The notes: generated from the sequence alone by a model not told the origin. A DNA stretch of 63,955 nucleotides, filler included, from Candidatus Coatesbacteria bacterium (GCA_016927185.1; 5 parts of 5 records of this genome joined end to end with filler, not necessarily neighbours in it), one strand, 5' to 3'; shown: positions 20,837-62,217, counted from the first letter of the whole stretch. Numbers and translations: made by a program.

Positions 20837-20936
20837 NNNNNNNNNNNNNNNNNNNNNNNNNNNNNNNNNNNNNNNNNNNNTTAATTAATTAANNNNNNNN
20901 NNNNNNNNNNNNNNNNNNNNNNNNNNNNNNNNNNNN
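20837..20936. other. Artificial contig linker
   Basis: N-run containing TTAATTAATTAA (stops in all six frames), 100 bp in total. Confidence 0.98.
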
Positions 20937-47813: not shown

Positions 47814-47913
47814 NNNNNNNNNNNNNNNNNNNNNNNNNNNNNNNNNNNNNNNNNNNNTTAATTAATTAANNNNNNNNNNNNNNNNNNNNNNNNNNNNNNN
47901 NNNNNNNNNNNNN
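47814..47913. other. Artificial contig linker
   Basis: N-run with TTAATTAATTAA. Confidence 0.98.
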
Positions 47914-47989
47914 TCATTATATTATGTCATTATGGTAAAGACTTATATTTTAGGTGATATAACAATTTACGATTGTCAGGTAAGGAAAC

Positions 47990-48436
47990 ATGTCTGATTT
48001 TTTAAAGGATGCAGAACAAATAGCAAACAAGTTGAGAACACTGGGGCAGGTTGCTCCCCAGAAAGCAAAGTCAGGACTTGCTGCTGCTGCTTCTGCAATC
48101 TCCAGTCAGGCAAAGGCACTTGCACCAAGAAGGACAGGGCATTTGAAACACAGCATATCCCAGTCAGTATATCCTGTTGTTGGTGGAATGAAGGCAGTTA
48201 TTGGAACTAATGTTCATTATGTAGTTGTAACAGAAGAAGGGACAAACATTTATCCAATCATACCAACAAGAAGGAAAACAACAAGGAGAAGGAAAAGAAC
48301 AAGAAGATACTTTAATCTGAATAGACAAAAGAGAGTTAAAAAGAATGTTTATAATATTGATGATTTGCTTTTCCTGATTGTTGAAAAAGTCAGCAAAGAA
48401 GTTAATGATAGTGTAGAACAAATTTTCAAGAAATGA
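47990..48436 (+). CDS. HK97 gp10 family phage tail-component-like protein
   Basis: AKALAP.RTG.L..SI...VIGTNVHY...E.GT motif; AAGGA RBS. Confidence 0.75.
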   Translation: MSDFLKDAEQIANKLRTLGQVAPQKAKSGLAAAASAISSQAKALAPRRTGHLKHSISQSVYPVVGGMKAVIGTNVHYVVVTEEGTNIYPIIPTRRKTTRRRKRTRRYFNLNRQKRVKKNVYNIDDLLFLIVEKVSKEVNDSVEQIFKK

Positions 48437-48463
48437 TTTGTTTCTTGAAAATTTCTTAAACAA

Positions 48464-51160
48464 TCACTTGAAAACTTCTGTCAACACTTTGAAATTATTC
48501 AACTTATCTCTGTAGTCTTCCCACTTGCCTTGCTTGACATATAGAGAGTGGAAGTTGCAATCCTTGTAAAATTCTGATGCTTCTCTGCACCATTCTTTAA
48601 GTCGTTCCTTTTTCAACAAGGCATTAGTATCTTCAAGTCCTTTTGTTTCAATAATCCAGACATTATCTTTATTCTCTTGAACTATAAAGTCAGGATAATA
48701 ATTTGAAATATTCCCTTCGCAATCCCTGTAATCAATCTTGAAACCTATTGGCATGTAATTCTTTACAAAAGAAATAATATCATTGCAACTGTCAAGAAAT
48801 GCTGCAAATTTAAGTTCCAGATTATTATCACCTACTATTCTATTAAAGATAGAACGCATTGGAAAAATATATTCTTTCCAGTCAGAAAGAAAAGGTCTTG
48901 TATTCTTTACTGAAATAGTTTCTTTTAATTCAGTTACTCCTCTGTCCTCAACAGTCAGCTTGTTCAAAGCCTCTCTAAAAGCTTCTATAATTCCTTTTGT
49001 AACAGTCACTTCTGACAGATTGCAAAGCACATTCCTGTCTTCAATATTGACTGGTATTTCAAAGAGTCTGGTTTCAATGTATTGCTTCACTTTTTCATAT
49101 AGGAAGTCCTTGCCATCTACAAGATGCATGCTTTTTGTAATTGCAAGAACAAAGAAACCTATTGCATTCTGATAATTCTGAATGTATGATTCCTGCAATT
49201 CTGTTCTATGACTTTCTTCTTCAAAAACTAGCTTCTTGAAGATTATCTCCCTCTTGTCTTTTTCTTCAAATTTTGTAAGTTTCATATTCAGGAAAGGCAG
49301 GTCATTTATATTCAGGTTTGCAATGTTCTTGTATTCCCTGTAAAAGCGGGAAGATAATACTGGCAGTTTTATATTCAGGTTCTCTATATTCTTCTTCTTG
49401 TTATCAGTATCTATTTCAATCAAGAAAGGTTTGTTATTTAACTTACTGCCAATAGTCATTGGTTCATATTCCAGTTTAACACCTTCTCTTTCAATAGATT
49501 CCACAAATTCTATAAAAGCAGAAGTTCCTATGACACTAACTTTTTCTTTTAATTCCTGACCTCTGAACATCAACCTCAGTCCTCTTCCAAGTGTTTGTTC
49601 TGGAAGTATTCTGCTTTTTGCTTTGTAGGGACGCAAGCCAACCATTGTAACTACATTCCTGACATCCCAGCCTTCCCTTAACATCATAACTGAAACTATT
49701 GCCTTGTATTTGTTTTCTTCATTGTCAATTTCATGACTGAGCTTTCTCAGGCTTTCCAGTTCTTTCTTTTTGCTGCTATCAGAAGGAGCTTCTGAAATTT
49801 CACCATTGCTCTTTGTATGAATTACCAAGACACCATCTGAAAGAAGCGGGTAATGCGTTTTCAGGAATTCACCAACTTCATCGCAATTCCTTGTATCATC
49901 AGTCATTATGAAAAGCACAGGCTTCTTGCCACTCGGGTTAAACTCATTATAGGACTTTTCCCATTCTTCATATCCCAAGTCAAGATAGTCCTTGTAACGT
50001 TCAGTAAATTTGTCACTGCTTTTTTCTTTCAGTTTCTCACGTGATGCTTTGTCAGGCAACACTGGAGTTTTTACAATATGCTGTTTTATTGCTTCAACTA
50101 ATGGATAGTCACTTATGGTTTCTACAAAGATGCTTCCATTAGTATGCTTTGGGGTTGCTGTGAAATCCAGCTGCAAGGAAAGCTTGCTGTCATTCAAACG
50201 CAGATTGTTGGAAATATCTTCTATATTCTTGAACCATTCCAGCTCTTCATCATGAATATGATGAGCCTCGTCATTAATGACAATCAGGTCAGGAATTCTT
50301 CTTATTATCTGACCTACATCAAGTTTACCGTCAGTTGTCTTGCCTGCTGGTTTCTTTCCAAGAAAGTAATCCATTGTGTTCTCATCATCAATTGAAGGCT
50401 CTTTTGTCCTGCTTTCATATACTCTTTGAATATTTGTTAAAAATATGTTTCCATTGTTTGAAATCAATCCTATATTATCCTGAAAGTGAACTGAAAGCTG
50501 GAAATCATCAAGCCAGTTCTGTCCTTCAAATCCATTGTCAGGTATAATGGGATTTTTGTGAAAAATTTGAAGTGATTTAAAATCAGATTTCAGTCTTTCA
50601 AAAACTATTATGTTTGGGGCAATCACAAGAAAATTATTGCTCAAGTCTTTGCTTTCTTCATATTTCCTGTTGTAGTATGCCCATGCAACAAGCATTGCCA
50701 TGACAACTGTCTTGCCTGTTCCTGTTGCCATCTTTATTACATATCTTGTCCAGTCTTCTGGAAACATCTTTTCTGATATTTGGCTTGAGCTATCATAACG
50801 CATAAGTGAATATGGGTCATGAGCTTTCTCTATTTCAAATAACCATATTACTGATTCAACTGCTTCCCTTTGTGCAAAGTAAAAACAGAATTTGTTGAAA
50901 ATATCTTCTGTGTATTGAACCCTTTCTTCAAGATAATGTTCTGTATCAAACCAGAATTTGAACAAGGCTTTTGTTGTCTCAGTTGCTCCCTTGTAATTGC
51001 TTCTTCTCCATTCCTTTACACCTTTCCTTATCTTGTCAACCAAGGGAGGAATGAGTGTTGCATAATCCTGTTCAATAATCTCATTTTCATCTGGTTTCCA
51101 TCTCAGGGAAGGGTCTATTATCTCATATGGATTTTCTGGAAAATTTTCAAACAAAGCCAT
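48464..51160 (-). CDS. res: Type III restriction-modification Res subunit
   Basis: MATGTGKT, INDEAHH, TATP, LREGWDV, QTLGRGLR, C-terminal YYPDF...IETKG. Confidence 0.92.
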   Translation of the reverse strand: MALFENFPENPYEIIDPSLRWKPDENEIIEQDYATLIPPLVDKIRKGVKEWRRSNYKGATETTKALFKFWFDTEHYLEERVQYTEDIFNKFCFYFAQREAVESVIWLFEIEKAHDPYSLMRYDSSSQISEKMFPEDWTRYVIKMATGTGKTVVMAMLVAWAYYNRKYEESKDLSNNFLVIAPNIIVFERLKSDFKSLQIFHKNPIIPDNGFEGQNWLDDFQLSVHFQDNIGLISNNGNIFLTNIQRVYESRTKEPSIDDENTMDYFLGKKPAGKTTDGKLDVGQIIRRIPDLIVINDEAHHIHDEELEWFKNIEDISNNLRLNDSKLSLQLDFTATPKHTNGSIFVETISDYPLVEAIKQHIVKTPVLPDKASREKLKEKSSDKFTERYKDYLDLGYEEWEKSYNEFNPSGKKPVLFIMTDDTRNCDEVGEFLKTHYPLLSDGVLVIHTKSNGEISEAPSDSSKKKELESLRKLSHEIDNEENKYKAIVSVMMLREGWDVRNVVTMVGLRPYKAKSRILPEQTLGRGLRLMFRGQELKEKVSVIGTSAFIEFVESIEREGVKLEYEPMTIGSKLNNKPFLIEIDTDNKKKNIENLNIKLPVLSSRFYREYKNIANLNINDLPFLNMKLTKFEEKDKREIIFKKLVFEEESHRTELQESYIQNYQNAIGFFVLAITKSMHLVDGKDFLYEKVKQYIETRLFEIPVNIEDRNVLCNLSEVTVTKGIIEAFREALNKLTVEDRGVTELKETISVKNTRPFLSDWKEYIFPMRSIFNRIVGDNNLELKFAAFLDSCNDIISFVKNYMPIGFKIDYRDCEGNISNYYPDFIVQENKDNVWIIETKGLEDTNALLKKERLKEWCREASEFYKDCNFHSLYVKQGKWEDYRDKLNNFKVLTEVFK

Positions 51161-51180
51161 GTCAACTCCTTTACAATTTA

Positions 51181-51606
51181 CTACAGCTCATCTGACAAAT
51201 CCTTTAGCTCAGGATTCTTTTTCCTTATCAGTTTTCTCTTTGCTGTCATTGTCCATTTCTTGAAAATATTCACTTTTACAGATGCTTCTTTGTAGTCTTT
51301 CACTTTTTCAAAGTAAACCAGTTTCTCGAATACTTTTGACTGTCTTACCAGTTTATCTCTTCTCTTGAGTTTTGTTATTCTCTGTTTCAAATCAGCAGTC
51401 ACATCAATAAAGAAGATTTCATTAGCTTCATTTGTCAGTATGTAAACAAAATAACCTGTTTCTTCTACCTTGTCTGCTGCTTCTTTTAATTCCTTTACAA
51501 CCTTCTTGTTTTCTTCAAGCAAATCCTTGTAGTATGGTTTATCCAAGTCAATGATATTCATTGGATTACTGACGTCATGAGGGTATCTGGTCTTTTCTTT
51601 TTTCAT
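51181..51606 (-). CDS. GIY-YIG family protein (degenerate)
   Basis: YFVYILTN...FFIDVT.DL..R, LVYFE, K.W...K..LI...NP...DL. Confidence 0.75.
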   Translation of the reverse strand: MKKEKTRYPHDVSNPMNIIDLDKPYYKDLLEENKKVVKELKEAADKVEETGYFVYILTNEANEIFFIDVTADLKQRITKLKRRDKLVRQSKVFEKLVYFEKVKDYKEASVKVNIFKKWTMTAKRKLIRKKNPELKDLSDEL

Positions 51607-53717
51607 ATTCTCACCTCTATCACTTTTGTTGTGTCATTCCCGAAAATGTCTATGACCTTGACTGCTATTTTGTATTTGCCTTTTTGTTCATATTCATGAG
51701 AAACACTTGTCAGATCCAGTGTTCTGTCCTTCTTTTTCCTGAAGCTCTGCCACATGTTCTCAAAAATATAGCTGCCAGTCCAGACTTCTCTCTTAGATTC
51801 TCCCTCTTGTATCTTTATTATCTCCTTCTTGCTTTCATAGTCAAAGTCAACAGACCAGTAGTCAATCCAGTCAGTCCATTCTTTAGTAAGTATTTCCCTT
51901 GAAACAATTCCCTGTTTGTCTTTTGATATTTTCACTACATTCCCGTTTTCAACAATCACCTTGAAAGCTCCGTTCTTTAATCTCTCTTCTGTTTCCCTGT
52001 TATCATCCTGCCTGTAAAATACACCATAATCTTTCAGCTTGATAACAAGGGAGAGATTCTTTATTTCAGGAAGGACTTCAATATATGCAACATCAAAGAA
52101 CTGGACCTGACCTTTTTCTATTGCACGCCTGTCAAATACATCTCTCGGGATATATTTCAAGGCAAGGTTCACACCCCTGAGTTTCGCTTCGTCTTTCATG
52201 AAGTGAACTACACCCATCTCGTAATCAAAACCTAAAACATCAACCTTGCTAATCTTGTTTTTCCTGCATGATGAAATCACTTCATTAAGCAAAGACAATG
52301 TGACAGGGGAGTCGTATGAACCAACATAAAGCATTGTTGAAGCTTTCTTGCCATGAAATGGAGGAAGCTGGAAAACTCGTTCTGCTTTGTATGCCTGAAG
52401 AATTATATTAATATAATGCTCTTCTTTTTGAATGGACAGGACTTTTTTCTGCTCTTCAGGAAGGTTTGGATCAATTCCAACAAAGTATTGCCTTTCGTAT
52501 TTGCCAAGATTAAGGATTTCGAAACTTCTGTAAGGTTTGCCATCCTTCTTGAGATTTCTCTGGACATCAATAAGTCTTTTTCTTGAAGTATGAATTGCAA
52601 AGCGTCCCAAATCACATCCTATCCATTTCCTGTTAAGCTTTTCTGCAACAGACAAAGTTGTCCCAGAACCGCAGAAGAAGTCTGCAACTAAGTCGCCTTC
52701 ATTAGAAGAAGCTTTGATTATGCGGTCAAGTAAGGCTTCGGGTTTTTGAGTAGGATAGTTTATACGTTCTTGCACAGTAGGTATTTGTTGAAAAGACATT
52801 ATATCATTCCAGACATCACCAATCGCTTTGCCTTTTTCTAAGACTTCATCCAAATATCTTTTTACTCCTCTTCCATCAAAATATTTTCTCCCATCTTTAT
52901 CAATTTTATTGAATCTATTAATATATTCAATTCTATGTTCAGTGCATAGTTTGTTGAAAATAAAAGTACTGTTTTTTGTAACAAAAAAGATTGTATCATG
53001 TCCTCTAATCCAATTTTGGGCTAAACTCTTAAAACCACTTAATACACTAATATCCCATATTATTTCCCTCTGAAAATTCTCTCCCCCAAATACTTCATCC
53101 ATAATCAACCTCAAATGACTGTTAACTCTCCAGTCACAATGAACGTATATACTTCCATCATCTGAAAGCAAATCCCGCATCAAGCTAAGCCTTTCATACA
53201 TCATTGAAAGATAGGAATCTGTTCCTCTTCCCCATGTGTCTCTGTAAGCCAGCTCTTCAATTACTGACTGCTCTTTTGTAAGCTCCTCTCCTTCACCAAC
53301 TTCTATTGAAAAAGAGAAGTCCGCACCTACGTCAAAAGGAGGGTCAATATAAATGAGCTTCAATCCACCTGCCTGTTCTATCTCCTCTCTCAGATATCCA
53401 TTCTTCAATGATGACAGAACCAGCTTGTTGTCCCCCCAGATTAGCTTGTTTGTCCATCCGCCTTTCTGCCTTCCAGTCAGTTTGTCCAGCTCAAACAGAC
53501 CTATTTCTGCAGAGTCCTTTTCCTCTCTTGGTTCGTCAATGTGTTCTATGGACTGGAAAGGAAGGACAATGTTTGTCACTTCATTAGTCTTTCCCTGCCA
53601 TATAAGCTCTGTCTCAAATGGCTCTTCAAACAGCTTGTGTCTGTAATGAGCAGGAAGCGGTTGCCCTTTGTCAATCAAGCTCTTTATTTCCTCTTTTTCC
53701 CTGTCAGTCAGTTGCAT
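51603..53717 (-). CDS. mod: Type III restriction-modification Mod subunit (m6A methyltransferase)
   Basis: NKLIWGDN, LIYIDPPF, YPTQKPE.L..RII.ASS, DFFCGSGT. Confidence 0.92.
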   Translation of the reverse strand: MQLTDREKEEIKSLIDKGQPLPAHYRHKLFEEPFETELIWQGKTNEVTNIVLPFQSIEHIDEPREEKDSAEIGLFELDKLTGRQKGGWTNKLIWGDNKLVLSSLKNGYLREEIEQAGGLKLIYIDPPFDVGADFSFSIEVGEGEELTKEQSVIEELAYRDTWGRGTDSYLSMMYERLSLMRDLLSDDGSIYVHCDWRVNSHLRLIMDEVFGGENFQREIIWDISVLSGFKSLAQNWIRGHDTIFFVTKNSTFIFNKLCTEHRIEYINRFNKIDKDGRKYFDGRGVKRYLDEVLEKGKAIGDVWNDIMSFQQIPTVQERINYPTQKPEALLDRIIKASSNEGDLVADFFCGSGTTLSVAEKLNRKWIGCDLGRFAIHTSRKRLIDVQRNLKKDGKPYRSFEILNLGKYERQYFVGIDPNLPEEQKKVLSIQKEEHYINIILQAYKAERVFQLPPFHGKKASTMLYVGSYDSPVTLSLLNEVISSCRKNKISKVDVLGFDYEMGVVHFMKDEAKLRGVNLALKYIPRDVFDRRAIEKGQVQFFDVAYIEVLPEIKNLSLVIKLKDYGVFYRQDDNRETEERLKNGAFKVIVENGNVVKISKDKQGIVSREILTKEWTDWIDYWSVDFDYESKKEIIKIQEGESKREVWTGSYIFENMWQSFRKKKDRTLDLTSVSHEYEQKGKYKIAVKVIDIFGNDTTKVIEVRI

Positions 53718-53804
53718 TGAAACATTCCTTTCTTCTGAAAGTTTTGATTTTTAACACTCTGCATTGTTTTAATACTTATTAGTCAAGGAAGATTTTTTAT
53801 AAGC

Positions 53805-53901
53805 ACCTCGCCCTCTATCCTATCAGAGGAGGGGAGGAGAAATTCCTCACTCCCTATCTCTCCTTGTAAGAGAGGGGAGAAAGAATGACTGAGGAGAGGT
53901 T
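53805..53901. repeat. Degenerate REP-like element related to 20152-20229
   Basis: CCTCACTCCCTATCTCTCCTTGTAAGAGAGGGG...GAGGTTAAAA resembles CCTCACCCC...CTCTCCTTGTAGGAGAGGGG...GAGGTTAAAA. Confidence 0.65.
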
Positions 53902-53931
53902 AAAAGAAAGTTTACTGAGCTATTCAATCAA

Positions 53932-54066
53932 ATAAAAGCCCTCATCCAGTTTGATTAAAAATAAAAAAGGATAAATCATAATCTTGGTGGATGAGGGCAG
54001 TCGGTTATTATGATTAGTGCAGTAAATAAAATTAACAGTTTCAGGTCAAGGGAAAAGCACCAAGCT
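53932..54066 (-). ncRNA. Detached promoter-sRNA-terminator unit plus a truncated second unit
   Basis: GCCCTCATCCA (53938-53948)/TGGATGAGGGC (53988-53998) stem with A-tract, GGTCAA at 54044-54049, then GAAAAGCACC as in the main array. Confidence 0.55.
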
Positions 54067-54199
54067 CTAATATATCATCTTCATAGAATTTCCTTATAAA
54101 GAAATTTAATAAAGCAACTATCAAATATTTGTATCTATAATTAACTTGACAAGAAAACATATTCTCCATTTCTTTAATATAATTTAAAAGGAGTAAAAT

Positions 54200-55258
54200 A
54201 TGACAGTCTGGGTAGTAAGAGCTGGAAAATATGGAGAGTTGGAATCTATTGCTTTAAATAAAAACATTGTTTTAATAGGCTGGGGTTTAAAATCTCTTAG
54301 TTCTTTTAAAGATATGAAAGAAATAAAGGAAATGCTCGCAAGTAAGTATGCTGATAAAAGCAAAAATAGTATTTCAACTATAGCATCTGAATTGTGGTCT
54401 TTTGCCCATGACATTAAAAAGGGAGAATTAATTGTGTTACCACGCAAAACCAATTCCACTATTGCAGTTGGCGAAGTGATAGGGGATTATGAGTATAGAA
54501 GTGAACTTGAATATAGTCATACAATACCTGTAAAATGGTTGAAAACTGATATCCCGCGTGCACATTTTGATCCAGATTTATTATTTAGTTTTGGCAGCTT
54601 ATTGACAGTTTTTAAAGTAAATAGAGAAAATGCAGAAGAAAGAATAAAGGCATTAATAAGTAATACGAAACCAAATATTAGTGATGATAACAGTGATTAT
54701 TCAGCTGACATAAAGCAAAATTCAGAAGACCAGATACTAAAAATTAGTGATGATAACAGTGATTATTTTACTAACATAAAGCAATATTCAAAAGATCGGA
54801 TACTAACATATATACTAAGAAAATACAAAGGTCATAAACTAGAAAAACTAATAGAAGAGATTTTGAAATCAGAAGGTTATTTCACGCAAGGATCAAACAT
54901 AGGAGCAGATGAAGGAGTAGATATTCTTGCAGGTTCAGGGCAGTTTGGTTTTTCCCATCCCAATTTATGTATTCAAGTCAAATCAGGAAACAATCAAGTT
55001 GATTTAGCTACTTTTCGTAGTCTTCAAGGAACAATGAAAACTTTTAATGCTGAACATGGTCTTCTTGTTAGTTTGTTTGGATTTTCAAGTGCTGTGAAGA
55101 AAGAAGCGAAAAAGAGTTTTTTCAAGATAAGATTATGGGAATTAAATGATATATTTGAAGCTGTTTTAAAAAATTACGAAAAGTTTTCTGAAGATTTAAA
55201 GACAGAATTGCCATTACAAAGAATTTGGATTTTATCAGAAAAAGAAGAAGAAATTTAA
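54200..55258 (+). CDS. Mrr-like restriction endonuclease
   Basis: VWVVRAG N-terminus, C-terminal E.LI..IL...GY, GAD.GVDILA, IQVK, GLLVS..GF, IRLW. Confidence 0.85.
   Translation: MTVWVVRAGKYGELESIALNKNIVLIGWGLKSLSSFKDMKEIKEMLASKYADKSKNSISTIASELWSFAHDIKKGELIVLPRKTNSTIAVGEVIGDYEYRSELEYSHTIPVKWLKTDIPRAHFDPDLLFSFGSLLTVFKVNRENAEERIKALISNTKPNISDDNSDYSADIKQNSEDQILKISDDNSDYFTNIKQYSKDRILTYILRKYKGHKLEKLIEEILKSEGYFTQGSNIGADEGVDILAGSGQFGFSHPNLCIQVKSGNNQVDLATFRSLQGTMKTFNAEHGLLVSLFGFSSAVKKEAKKSFFKIRLWELNDIFEAVLKNYEKFSEDLKTELPLQRIWILSEKEEEI
54677..54808 (+). repeat. 66-bp in-frame tandem duplication in the Mrr linker
   Basis: ISDDNSDYSADIKQNSEDQILK / ISDDNSDYFTNIKQYSKDRILT. Confidence 0.9.
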
Positions 55259-55313
55259 TAGTTATTAGAGAAATATAAAACTACTGGAGAATTGTAAAAG
55301 CGAAATAATTGAT

Positions 55314-55348
55314 AATAGAAAAGGCTTTTGTTAAAGCCTTTTCTATTG
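55314..55348. terminator. Bidirectional terminator between convergent genes
   Basis: AATAGAAAAGGCTTT-tgtt-AAAGCCTTTTCTATT. Confidence 0.75.
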
Positions 55349-55358
55349 GAGGTAAAGA

Positions 55359-56624
55359 CTAATTTATTTTTACTATTCTTTTTGTTTCCTTCCCTGATTT
55401 AACAATATAAACTCCTTCTCTCCAGCTGCTTGTATCAAGTTTATGCATGCCTTTGGGAAGGTTCATTATCAGTTGACCTGTAATGGAATAGACAGCTCCT
55501 GAAGAAGGCAAGAAAACTGACAAGCGGGAGGAAAAGGGGTTGGGAGAAACTGAGAAGGATTTGGCTGGTATATATGAAGCTGTTTTGCTAGCCTTGAAAC
55601 CTGTATAACCAGTATCTATTGCATAAAGATAATGATCATTACTGCCTATAAACACAGTTCCTCCTCCAATGCTTGGTGAAGAAGCAACATTACCTCCAGT
55701 CAAATATCTCCAAAGAAGAGTCCCATCAGAAATATTTATTGCATAAAGATAACGATCATTACTGCCTACGTAAGCTGCTCCATTTGAAACACAGGGAGAT
55801 GTTACATTTCCACCTGTTAGATATCTCCATACAAGGGTTCCATCTGAAATATTTATAGCATAAAGATAACGATCATTACTGCCAACATAAACAACTCCAT
55901 TTGCAACACATGGTGATGAGTTTATTGTATTTCCAGTTAAATATCTCCAGACAAGAGTACCGTCTGAAGCATTAATTGCATAAAGATATCTATCATCACT
56001 GCCAACATAAACAACTCCATTAGCTAAACAAGGAGAAGAGCTTACATTGTTTCCAGTGAGATATCTCCAGCTTAAAGTACCATTTGAAGCAGTTACTGCA
56101 TAAAGGTAGTTATCATCACTACCAACAAATACTGCTGTGTTTGAAACGCAGGGAGATGAAGTAACATTGCCCCCGGTTAGATATCTCCATATAAGGGTTC
56201 CATCTGAAGTATTGATTGCGTATAGATAACGATCATTACTTCCAACGAAAGCAACTCCGTTTGCAACATATGGTGATGACGTTACGTTTCCACCTGTCTG
56301 ATATCTCCATATAAGGGTTCCATCTGAAGTATTGATTGCGTATAGATGACGATCATTACTTCCAACGAAAGCAACTCCGTTTGCAACATATGGTGATGAC
56401 GTTACGTTTCCACCTGTCTGATATCTCCATGCAAGCGTGCCATCAAAAGTACTATTAGCATAAAGGAAACGATCATTACTCCCTACGTAGACAGTATTGC
56501 TTAGAACATAGGGAGAGGAAGCAACATTGTTTCCTGTCTGGTATCTCCATAACAGGTCTCCTGGTGCTGAAAAAAGACATTCAAATAAACAGACAATGAA
56601 TAGAAAAACAATATAGTTTCTCAT
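55359..56624 (-). CDS. Eight-repeat PQQ-like beta-propeller protein with T9SS-like CTD
   Basis: GGAGG RBS, signal peptide, eight ~40-aa WRY.TG.NV.SSP.V..G..YVGSND..LYAIN..DGTL repeats, SPNPF...GVYIVK CTD. Confidence 0.9.
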   Translation of the reverse strand: MRNYIVFLFIVCLFECLFSAPGDLLWRYQTGNNVASSPYVLSNTVYVGSNDRFLYANSTFDGTLAWRYQTGGNVTSSPYVANGVAFVGSNDRHLYAINTSDGTLIWRYQTGGNVTSSPYVANGVAFVGSNDRYLYAINTSDGTLIWRYLTGGNVTSSPCVSNTAVFVGSDDNYLYAVTASNGTLSWRYLTGNNVSSSPCLANGVVYVGSDDRYLYAINASDGTLVWRYLTGNTINSSPCVANGVVYVGSNDRYLYAINISDGTLVWRYLTGGNVTSPCVSNGAAYVGSNDRYLYAINISDGTLLWRYLTGGNVASSPSIGGGTVFIGSNDHYLYAIDTGYTGFKASKTASYIPAKSFSVSPNPFSSRLSVFLPSSGAVYSITGQLIMNLPKGMHKLDTSSWREGVYIVKSGKETKRIVKIN

Positions 56625-56762
56625 CAAAATCCCTCCTTCTTTAATCAGAAATCCTAGAGAAAACAAATATTTATTTGTCAAATAAAAAATTAGGATATAC
56701 TAATCTAACCCCTAGACATGATGGACTGAGAAGAAGGAACAAAGCAGTATGGACAGGGAAGG

Positions 56763-57662
56763 AAAAGAAAACCCTCATCCAAATTTACAAATGATATTAA
56801 TGAAGGTAAATATTATTTGACCTATTAAATGGATGAGGATTATTATTAACAGACGCAAGCATAAGAATAATATAAGCATTTGAATGTCAAGAAAAAAAGC
56901 AGCTCTCAGAGGAGTTCCTCTTTGAGCTGCTTAGTAATAACAAAAATGAGGTCTTTAAACCTTGTGCTCTATAATAATAATAAAAAACTTTCTGTCAAGT
57001 CGAAAGCGCTCCGATATGAATTATCGGAATACTAAAAGAAGCAATAAAATGAAACCTTAGTCAGAGCTGTTAAAAAAATTAATATTACCGAGTCAAGAGA
57101 AAAGCACCTCAAAAGGGATATCCGTTTGAGGTGCTGAAGATCAATATTTGAGGTTTGAAAAACCTAGTAAACATCTATATTTTTTAAACAGTTTCTGTCA
57201 AGAAAAAAGCACTCCGATTTGAATAATCGGAGTACTAAAAGAAGCAATAAGATGAAACCTTAGACAGAGCTGTTAAAAAAATTAATATTGCGTTAAGAAA
57301 AAAAAGCACCATGCCATTTTTAAAGCATGGTGCTGGAGTATGATATGAAAACAACAAAGCAATATATCGCCTTGATGTAACAAAAACAAGGATATATAGA
57401 TAATAGAATTAGTCAAGAAAAATGCACCAAAGTTTTTCAAAAAGCTTTGGTGCGTAGAGAGAAAAAGAAATTAGTAAAATCAAATTCAGGAGAGAATTTA
57501 ATTTCAGGGAAAAGATATAAATGCTTGCAAAATAGGTCAAGGAATAAATAAAACTTCACCAGATTAATCTGGTGAAGTAGTTGTTCAAAAAAAAGTCAAC
57601 AAACAAGTCTTGTGATTGCTTGTTGCTGCCATGCAAGATAATATATGAGGAAATCTTGTCAA
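56763..57662 (-). ncRNA. Tandem array of eight putative promoter-small RNA-terminator cassettes
   Basis: -35-like boxes (minus strand TTGAC) start at 56885, 56993, 57091, 57196, 57291 (degenerate), 57411, 57535 and 57657. Each unit ends in a GC-rich hairpin plus U-tract abutting the next -35. No substantial ORFs. Confidence 0.7.
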
Positions 57663-57715
57663 GAGGAAAGGGAGAGAAGGAAAAAATCCAAGATAGTATT
57701 AATAAAAACCTTAAA

Positions 57716-58011
57716 TTAAAAACTTATCTCCTTAGTATATTCTATAACATTGAAATCTTCAAACATGCAAGCTTGATTTAATAAGTGGCTTATTAAAACA
57801 TAGAAAAATAATAAAGGTTTAGTAGTCAAACTTGCTATAGAAATAGATCCTTGACTCGGTAAAGCTGAAAAATTCCCTAGCTGATCTTTATTTATTATTA
57901 CTCCCTTTCTTAATATACAAATAGAATCTATTCTTTTATCAACTTCATCATTTGACTGCAATTCAATCAAGTTTTTATTGACCACATCTGGAGCATCTGA
58001 ATCAAATGCAA
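57716..58011 (-). CDS. 3' part of a hypothetical protein (DUF6602-like), truncated by contig end
   Basis: Frame open to the gap: AFDSDAPDVVNKNL...IDSICILRKG. Confidence 0.55.
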
Positions 58012-58111
58012 NNNNNNNNNNNNNNNNNNNNNNNNNNNNNNNNNNNNNNNNNNNNTTAATTAATTAANNNNNNNNNNNNNNNNNNNNNNNNNNNNNNNNN
58101 NNNNNNNNNNN
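58012..58111. other. Artificial contig linker
   Basis: N-run with TTAATTAATTAA. Confidence 0.98.
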
Positions 58112-62117: not shown

Positions 62118-62217
62118 NNNNNNNNNNNNNNNNNNNNNNNNNNNNNNNNNNNNNNNNNNNNTTAATTAATTAANNNNNNNNNNNNNNNNNNNNNNNNNNN
62201 NNNNNNNNNNNNNNNNN
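62118..62217. other. Artificial contig linker
   Basis: N-run with TTAATTAATTAA. Confidence 0.98.

Follow-up and report, generated by a model that had tools for sequence, protein, structure and literature searches.

Here we describe a 1.09-kb gap (positions 56625-57715) between two minus-strand genes, of which the downstream one encodes a beta-propeller protein, in a Candidatus Coatesbacteria bacterium (GCA_016927185.1). The gap belongs to the window, by which we mean the whole stretch of 63,955 nucleotides (nt) analysed. Read on the minus strand, the gap consists of eight head-to-tail units, each made of a -35 box, a non-coding body and a predicted terminator. On balance we take it for a predicted array of tandem sibling small-RNA genes, of the kind represented by NsiR1. 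The anatomy of the units, their strand, the calibration of the promoter box, the duplication and the uneven constraint are observed directly. Seven units of 95-124 nt run from 57663 down to 56892, and the eighth runs from 56891 to about 56735. Each box abuts the T-run of the preceding unit's terminator. The units and their parts are as follows, with the type-1 and type-2 units being the two duplicate pairs discussed below.

57542-57663, minus strand: unit 1 (122 nt), CTTGAC at 57663-57658, fold z -5.37
57627-57594 followed by T8, and 57578-57553 followed by a T-rich tail, minus strand: predicted terminators of unit 1
57418-57541, minus strand: unit 2 (124 nt), CTTGAC at 57541-57536, fold z -5.45
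57506-57475, minus strand: 5' hairpin of unit 2 with a UCUCCU loop, then a pyrimidine-rich linker and the predicted terminator 57453-57424 followed by T5
57298-57417, minus strand: unit 3 (120 nt), CTTGAC at 57417-57412, fold z -4.53
57378-57351, minus strand: hairpin of unit 3, then the predicted terminator 57334-57305 with 11 pairs, followed by T8
57203-57297, minus strand: unit 4 (95 nt, type 2), CTTAAC box, conserved 57-nt body, fold z -5.61
57236-57208, minus strand: predicted terminator of unit 4, followed by T6
57098-57202, minus strand: unit 5 (105 nt, type 1), CTTGAC, TTGACA-16-TATAGA, fold z -4.72
57165-57151, minus strand: small AGGU...ACCU hairpin of unit 5, then the predicted terminator 57135-57103 followed by TTTTCT
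57000-57097, minus strand: unit 6 (98 nt, type 2), CTTGAC, conserved body, fold z -0.45
57033-57005, minus strand: weakened predicted terminator of unit 6, one A.C mismatch, tail TTTCGA
56892-56999, minus strand: unit 7 (108 nt, type 1), CTTGAC, TTGACA-16-TATTAT (11/12), fold z -4.93
56962-56949, minus strand: small hairpin of unit 7, then the predicted terminator 56932-56897 followed by T7
56735-56891, minus strand: unit 8, CTTGAC at 56891-56886, T-rich tail
56841-56830 and 56781-56770, minus strand: arms of the long hairpin of unit 8

The minus strand of the array is 60% pyrimidine. A unit RNA is predicted to have a small 5' hairpin, a pyrimidine-rich linker of 15-22 nt and a terminator.

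The box occurs seven times as CTTGAC and once as CTTAAC on the minus strand of the array, always right after a T-run and at spacings of 95-124 nt. Its meaning can be calibrated within the genome. Genome-wide, intergenic DNA has 2.3 times the density of the motif TTGAC[A/T/C] seen in coding DNA. In 277 kb of gene-upstream DNA, CTTGAC is found 479 times in forward and 280 times in reverse orientation, and in 264 of 396 copies the start codon follows at 40-80 nt. Of the 44 transfer RNA (tRNA) genes, 18 have TTGAC at a distance of 38-61 nt (mostly 44-51) upstream of the mature 5' end, and most of the others lie inside tRNA clusters. It follows from this positioning upstream of genes and tRNAs that CTTGAC is the housekeeping -35 box of this genome. 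A usable promoter rule is obtained for the organism: CTTGACA stands some 45 nt upstream of the 5' end of mature tRNAs, and a sharp -10 is missing. Since the organism has no clear -10, limited statements are possible about individual units. A TAnnnT-like hexamer is found at 16-17 nt in units 1, 2, 3 and 7 by scan and in unit 5 by eye, and unit 8 has weak -10 candidates only, at 15-17 nt, by eye. In unit 1 the promoter-like TTGACA-16-TATCTT scores 10/12. A promoter scan of the array finds 14 promoter-like sites (4.7±2.7 expected), seven on each strand. Plus-strand matches are seen in the type-2 units at 57058-57085 (TAGTCA, unit 6, by eye) and 57261-57288 (TAGACA-16-TAATAT, unit 4), and in the hairpin loop of unit 8 at 56817-56846 (TTGACC-18-TATTAT). 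RNAs started at such plus-strand sites, were they active, would be antisense to units 5, 3 and 7; no plus-strand terminators follow the sites.

Terminators are normally single and stand at gene ends, with a stem sequence that is free provided that pairing is kept. Genome-wide, an intrinsic terminator is found within 100 nt of the stop codon in 151 of 2543 rough gene calls; the gene calls (2543 open reading frames, 88% of the genome) and the looser terminator calls come from rough custom scripts. In the array, a consensus terminator scan finds four sites, all on the minus strand, against 0.5±0.8 in shuffles. A looser scan combined with folds finds a hairpin plus T-rich tail closing every unit, with stems of 8-13 pairs, and nine terminators lie within 1 kb (unit 1 has two). 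The tails are T-rich after all minus-strand hairpins, the weakest being that of unit 6; read on the plus strand, all but one of these hairpins run into A- or G-rich sequence instead. The hairpins of the array are, as predicted from these features, minus-strand intrinsic terminators.

The earlier note on this DNA, made from the sequence alone, had proposed selection on the RNA structure of minus-strand transcripts, citing an asymmetry of G.U pairs between the strands. The asymmetry is real but weak, the minus-strand folds having 23 G.U pairs and those of the plus strand 17. The fold z values for units 1-7 are -5.4, -5.5, -4.5, -5.6, -4.7, -0.45 and -4.9 on the minus strand and -4.4, -4.1, -3.7, -3.8, -3.7, -0.3 and -5.1 on the plus strand. 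Folding both strands therefore favours the minus strand in six of seven units, but by about one z unit only, and for unit 6 the structure is significant on neither strand (z -0.45 and -0.29). It is the shared orientation of the T-runs and CTTGAC boxes that settles the minus strand, whereas folding energies barely discriminate. The proposal was right about the strand; the structures, however, are predicted terminators, and no novel folded RNA domain is seen.

The arrangement is rare in this genome. Among 393 sites genome-wide where a T-run is followed by CTT[GA]AC, the array is the sole cluster of at least three, and 5 of the 18 terminator-then-box junctions of the genome fall in it. Only seven units composed of a box, 55-140 nt and a terminator are entirely intergenic in the genome; four of them are in the array and one is a tRNA gene, which demonstrates that the pattern detects real small-RNA genes. 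The other two lie near positions 1823-1950 of contig C69 and 21920-22020 of contig C109, both on the plus strand, and are possible single small-RNA genes judged by this pattern.

Two-unit duplication within the array, as claimed in the earlier note, is borne out. Units 4 and 6 are near-identical (84/95 positions in a global alignment, z=28, 0/200 shuffles), and the quoted core with its A/G and T/A differences is present. Units 5 and 7 are diverged homologues (71/103 identical, z=10.3, 0/200 shuffles), and both keep the small AGGT...ACCT hairpin. A direct repeat of 130 nt with 203-nt spacing and 82% identity marks the duplicated block. The coordinates of the earlier note are one base off those used here. 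The four units that it had recognised are there, but the array actually comprises eight promoter-to-terminator units; the other 19 of the 21 pairs among units 1-7 are no more alike than shuffles (z<3).

Compensatory base changes had also been claimed. They exist, one per duplicate pair, but have no statistical weight. Between units 4 and 6, CCGATA/TATCGG and CCGATT/AATCGG differ by a single A-U to U-A swap of the pair that closes the loop. Of the 12 pairs of this stem, nine are invariant and one has the two-sided change; of the remaining two, one has turned from C-G into U.G and the other is lost (A-U to A.C). The other, GCAGCTC/GAGCTGC versus GCACCTC/GAGGTGC, is one G-C/C-G swap in the lower stem of unit 7 versus unit 5. 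In a covariation test 236 of 500 shuffles reach the observed score, the test having no power with two sequences per stem, and the simulated chance of one compensated pair per stem is 0.11 and 0.03 (the lower stem having been chosen post hoc). As terminator stems tolerate any paired sequence, compensatory changes of this kind fit terminators.

The constraint on the array is uneven. The -35 box and the terminator are kept in all eight units, while the bodies are unalignable apart from the duplicate pairs. Between the type-2 units 4 and 6 the body has 2 differences in 57 positions (55/57 identical), compared with 7 in 30 for their own terminator and tail (p=0.007). The sister pair of units 5 and 7 has 32 differences in 103 positions (p=1.4e-5 against the type-2 body). 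The halves of the block have thus diverged unequally, in line with the diversification after duplication that had been suggested earlier.

A related contig of 151 nt from a wetland metagenome (depth 2) covers 56901-57056 at about 80% identity, and its sequence is readable only as a list of differences. In it the terminator stem of unit 7 (56901-56932, 32 nt) and the -35 box are unchanged, while the body of unit 7 carries 19 substitutions and 4 deletions in 57 nt. The part of the unit 6 body that is covered has no change in 23 nt. One change repairs the A.C mismatch of unit 6 to A-U; two others lengthen its T-run, and one is a half-step of the loop-closing swap. Judged from these differences, the wetland contig carries the same constraint pattern in a second organism. 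We read this pattern as apparent purifying selection on the transcription start, the transcription stop and the type-2 body. The type-1 bodies, which are hypervariable and have a fast-changing linker, would be free to change or in the course of being replaced.

Other kinds of elements were considered for the array. The units contain no conserved open reading frame, and the only frames present differ between duplicates. A minus-strand frame of the type-2 units, seen by eye, has 27 codons in unit 4 and 7 in unit 6, where the compensatory change cuts it, and was rejected. A plus-strand frame of 14 codons in the type-2 units was rejected as a gene, its start codons differing between the copies. 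ARAGORN finds no tRNA in the array. A scan of 55000-58012 with the Rfam covariance models at E values up to 10 returned two chance matches only, to a microRNA and a small nucleolar RNA model, at 15-19 bits versus gathering scores of 50-79. A CRISPR array or the RNA repeats of a type III toxin-antitoxin system do not fit, as Tandem Repeats Finder reports no array in 56625-57715, the units of 95-124 nt are mostly unrelated, and the neighbours are a propeller protein and an unknown protein. The attC sites of integrons have the core GTTRRRY. By eye the plus-strand boxes read GTCAAG and cassettes are absent, so that this candidate was also rejected.

Relatives of the array were sought widely. A DNA search of 41 genomes (this one and 40 related at the domain level only) gave short chance matches with E>0.001. 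The exact type-2 core pattern has no match in metagenome contigs and none in genome contigs. In 80 metagenome loci around relatives of the propeller protein there is neither a cluster of T-runs with boxes nor an nhmmer match to any unit. Distant-mode searches of phage and plasmid collections gave chance matches of 33-59 nt only.

One possible target of the type-2 body emerged from the start regions of the genome (named G000 in coordinates). The plus strand of unit 6 aligns with -20 to +38 of the gene at G000:C82:31927-32256, start codon on start codon, with 47 of 63 columns identical and three gap openings. The Smith-Waterman score of 45 compares with shuffle maxima of 31.9±2.9 over 2527 start regions and was unreached in 160 shuffles (0/120 and 0/40), all of these figures referring to start regions only. 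The predicted pairing comprises two 9-base-pair helices, over the ribosome-binding site and the start codon. That the type-2 body may be antisense to a ribosome-binding site and start codon is a borderline lead. Predicted pairing of units 4, 5 and 6 is likewise stronger at the start regions of 57 propeller paralogs than at those of other genes. A start-region match of unit 5 was rejected as promoter-to-promoter similarity. There is no long near-perfect target of the type-2 body in the genome and no start-region look-alike for units 1, 2, 3, 5, 7 and 8. The best whole-genome blastn matches of all units have E values of 0.006-0.74, which is background.

The gene on contig C82 encodes a 109-amino-acid HPr-kinase-N-like protein, in an operon whose other products include NuoE-like, NuoF-like and ferredoxin-domain proteins as well as a flavin adenine dinucleotide (FAD) oxidoreductase. 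The operon (G000:C82:26500-34200) encodes a 179-amino-acid unknown protein, the HPr-kinase-N-like protein, a NuoE-like 2Fe-2S protein, a 640-amino-acid NuoF-like protein, a 227-amino-acid 2Fe-2S/4Fe-4S protein and a 534-amino-acid FAD/4Fe-4S oxidoreductase. Its gene content suggests a flavin-based, NADH-linked redox complex. Contig C40 carries two distant paralogs of the 109-amino-acid protein.

The setting of the array is as follows. The window consists of five contigs (C11, C12, C19, C27 and C91) joined via N runs around TTAATTAATTAA, with joints at 20837-20936, 47814-47913, 58012-58111 and 62118-62217; no feature is to be read across a joint. The array lies on contig C19 (10,098 nt, window 47914-58011), about 350 nt from its end, and its upstream context is therefore incomplete. 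The genome assembly has 2.99 Mb in 109 contigs, 36% G+C, and is rated 93% complete. Among the reference species searched, the phylum is represented by this genome alone. The best-matching DNA run is a sediment metagenome, which may be the source of the organism. The array is flanked by the following features.

55359-56624, minus strand: downstream gene, 421-amino-acid PQQ-like beta-propeller protein with a T9SS type A sorting domain; PF13570, PF13360
56701-56730, minus strand: 30-nt motif preceding TTGACA (56681-56676) of the downstream propeller gene
57716-58011, minus strand: last 97 codons of the upstream gene, which is truncated at the contig end; matches no protein family

The sorting domain of the propeller protein is assigned by TIGR04183 (25 bits versus a cut-off of 23). 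The propeller family is very large, with 147 genome matches at E<=1e-10 in 3 Mb; 57 rough gene calls align with the propeller protein from the N-terminus, and many contigs end in such genes. The stop codon of the upstream gene is at 57716, and no terminator lies between it and unit 1. The 30-nt motif has 15 copies in the genome, each 10-25 nt upstream of a (C/A)TTGAC box. Its consensus is close to CTCAGTCCATSATGTCTAGGGGCTAGATTA, with the palindrome TCTAG-GGG-CTAGA. Many copies precede propeller paralogs, often near contig ends; elsewhere in the genome it is found for example on contigs C30, C38, C43, C47, C53, C56, C60 and C67, and further on C73, C88, C89, C95, C97 and C106. The motif resembles a shared site for a regulator, or else the border of a repeated element.

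The rest of contig C19 (window 47990-55258) is defence-like in gene content.

47990-48436: open reading frame, HK97-gp10-like tail component
48464-51160: res subunit of a type III restriction system
51181-51606: GIY-YIG protein
51603-53717: N6/N4 DNA methylase
54200-55258: Mrr-type endonuclease

A 66-nt tandem repeat with two copies and 86% matches lies at 54673-54806, within the gene of the Mrr-type endonuclease.

Three other explanations of the array have to be weighed against small-RNA genes. It may be a stack of terminators that shields the propeller gene from upstream read-through, the boxes being weak or incidental and the junction having been multiplied by duplication. The upstream gene without a terminator of its own before unit 1, the two terminators of unit 1, the lack of sequence constraint in the bodies of units 1-3, 5 and 7 and the lack of a target signal would all be expected of such a stack, and the propeller gene has its own promoter and 30-nt motif, as its paralogs do. 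However, one or two terminators suffice for shielding, which makes eight superfluous. The -35 box would not need to be kept in eight units while the bodies are randomised, and the type-2 body, conserved in the wetland contig too, has changed far less than its own terminator. We regard a shielding stack as unlikely. The position of the array, directly upstream of the propeller gene and on the same strand, would also suit a long 5' leader of this gene transcribed from a promoter further upstream, a multi-step attenuator whose serial terminators are overcome via a processive antitermination factor or alternative folds. A 13-nt complementarity between the 5' part of type 2 and the promoter spacer of unit 5 would even allow long-range helices around the terminator of unit 4, but by a rough estimate such complementarity is at chance (about 3-4 expected in 1.2 kb of AT-rich DNA). 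Neither a riboswitch nor a leader family matches, and a -35 box after every terminator is superfluous for a leader. Moreover, the propeller gene has its own CTTGACA-type promoter and 30-nt motif downstream of the array, just as at the 14 other loci where the motif stands with no adjoining array, and for this reason we hold a leader to be very unlikely.

The units may also be decaying relics, that is, inverted 5' gene fragments that were duplicated in tandem, with the conservation of type 2 caused by recent gene conversion. The resemblance of the type-2 plus strand to -20 to +38 of the real gene on C82 would be explained, including V-K-K-I-N-I-T versus I-K-K-V-N-I-T of that gene, though a stop codon intervenes after the ATG. 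The plus strands of units 5 and 6 are also slightly more like the leaders of propeller genes (2/100 and 1/100 shuffles). The similarity to a gene fragment is itself borderline, however, and eight same-strand terminators with T-runs together with eight -35 boxes would not persist in relics. In the second organism the covered part of the type-2 body is unchanged next to a unit 7 body that differs by about 40%, and conversion inside a single genome is insufficient to account for conservation across two organisms. Relics are very improbable in our view.

A number of observations tell against small-RNA genes as well. Expectation maximization over the upstream regions of the genome finds no positioned -10 motif, and TAnnnT is enriched just 2-3 times genome-wide, at spacers of 13-16 rather than 17. 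Units 4 and 6 have no convincing -10, the box of unit 4 is CTTAAC and the spacing from box to body differs by 3 nt between the two, so the type-2 units may have no promoter of their own. The promoter scan is not strand-specific, given its seven plus-strand sites, and the terminator of unit 6 is degraded (fold z -0.45). The possible target on C82 ranks 17th of 2536 genes by duplex energy. Its whole-genome blastn E value of 0.016 is no better than the chance matches of other units (0.006-0.03), and nhmmer does not report the similarity. Duplex energies against 2539 start regions have minima and means no better than those of shuffled RNA. The pairing bias towards propeller genes partly survives shuffling of unit 6, and the paralogs are not independent; by alignment this bias is borderline (1-2/100 shuffles, 16 tests). 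Searches of the 93%-complete genome for Hfq and CsrA found neither. Beyond the 151-nt wetland contig, the searches yielded no homologous array with which to enlarge the covariation alignment. None of the sequencing runs listed for this sequence is an RNA run, and two metatranscriptomes of the source study gave no match over 56500-58011, which is neutral either way.

For tandem small-RNA genes, the following mechanism can be proposed. Each unit would be an independent mini transcription unit on the minus strand with its own -35 box and intrinsic terminator. The products are expected to be RNAs of about 45-100 nt, this range being obtained by applying the spacing from the box to the mature 5' ends of tRNAs. 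We infer from the layout that the units are transcribed, that transcription terminates at the predicted sites and that the RNAs regulate. Short non-coding RNAs that are independently started and terminated are by default small regulatory RNAs, and the unit RNAs would act as base-pairing regulators, as sibling small RNAs do. The array has grown by tandem duplication, the latest event being that of a two-unit block (units 4+5 and 6+7), and with the stem changes the predicted terminator hairpins stay closed. In type 1 (units 5 and 7) the predicted promoter, the small 5' hairpin and the predicted terminator are preserved. The complement of the type-2 body resembles a ribosome-binding site with a start codon, and the RNA may thus block translation initiation on one or several messenger RNAs.

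A more specific version of this mechanism, which we find quite improbable, would make the array a bank of trans-acting antisense cassettes whose bodies are inverted copies of the ribosome-binding sites and first codons of genes. Type 2 would then stem from the HPr-kinase-N-like gene of the NuoEF-type oxidoreductase operon and unit 5 from the leader of the expanded secreted-propeller family. The rapid turnover of type-1 bodies would be cassette replacement or retargeting. Plant microRNA genes are known to have arisen as inverted duplicates of the genes that they target. Should the type-2 lead be real, the likeness would be that of an RNA gene which began as an inverted copy of the target's 5' end. 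Kingdom, machinery and RNA form (a hairpin precursor in plants) are different, so the analogy is one of origin only, on borderline evidence. If true, such cassettes would offer a genome-encoded route to new translational repressors via inverted duplication of targets.

Tandem arrangement of small-RNA genes is known from other bacteria, LhrC1-4 of Listeria being an example. The closest parallel in layout is NsiR1 of Nostoc/Anabaena sp. PCC 7120, where 12 tandem gene copies upstream of hetF, each with its own promoter, specify an RNA of about 60 nt (PMC9045159). The central copies are identical and the peripheral ones diverged, and the copies regulate different targets, with which they pair at translation-initiation regions (PMC9045159). 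The likeness lies in layout, unit size and the mix of identical and diverged copies. By contrast, there is no sequence relation in the Rfam scan, and the array is far more heterogeneous (six unrelated bodies), its transcripts being predicted ones. NsiR1 promoters carry a heterocyst motif whereas the array units carry the housekeeping-type box, and one NsiR1 copy is antisense to the leader of its neighbour whereas the array is co-oriented with its neighbour.

PrrF1/PrrF2, OmrA/OmrB, AbcR1/2 and the csRNAs are side-by-side duplicated small-RNA genes with their own promoters and intrinsic terminators (PMC4211561). Such tandem siblings have conserved ends and divergent middles, and a leaky first terminator can give a longer RNA such as PrrH (PMC4211561). 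The weak terminator of unit 6 before unit 7 would fit a read-through pattern like that described there for PrrH. In contrast to the eight units of the array, families of the PrrF/OmrA type have two to six copies, known regulators and often Hfq. No regulator site is visible upstream of the array boxes, which is another difference from such siblings. Unlike ordinary intrinsic terminators, those of the array are each fused to a promoter box. By sequence the array belongs to none of these tandem small-RNA families, and we infer by analogy that it would work in a similar way.

Without transcription of its units, the locus would be no more than a peculiarly repetitive run of terminators. If the units are transcribed, they would be the first small-RNA genes of this candidate phylum and would stand among the larger bacterial tandem small-RNA arrays described. 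The constant flanks and variable body, seen between paralogs and between two organisms, would make the array a testable case of sibling small-RNA diversification.

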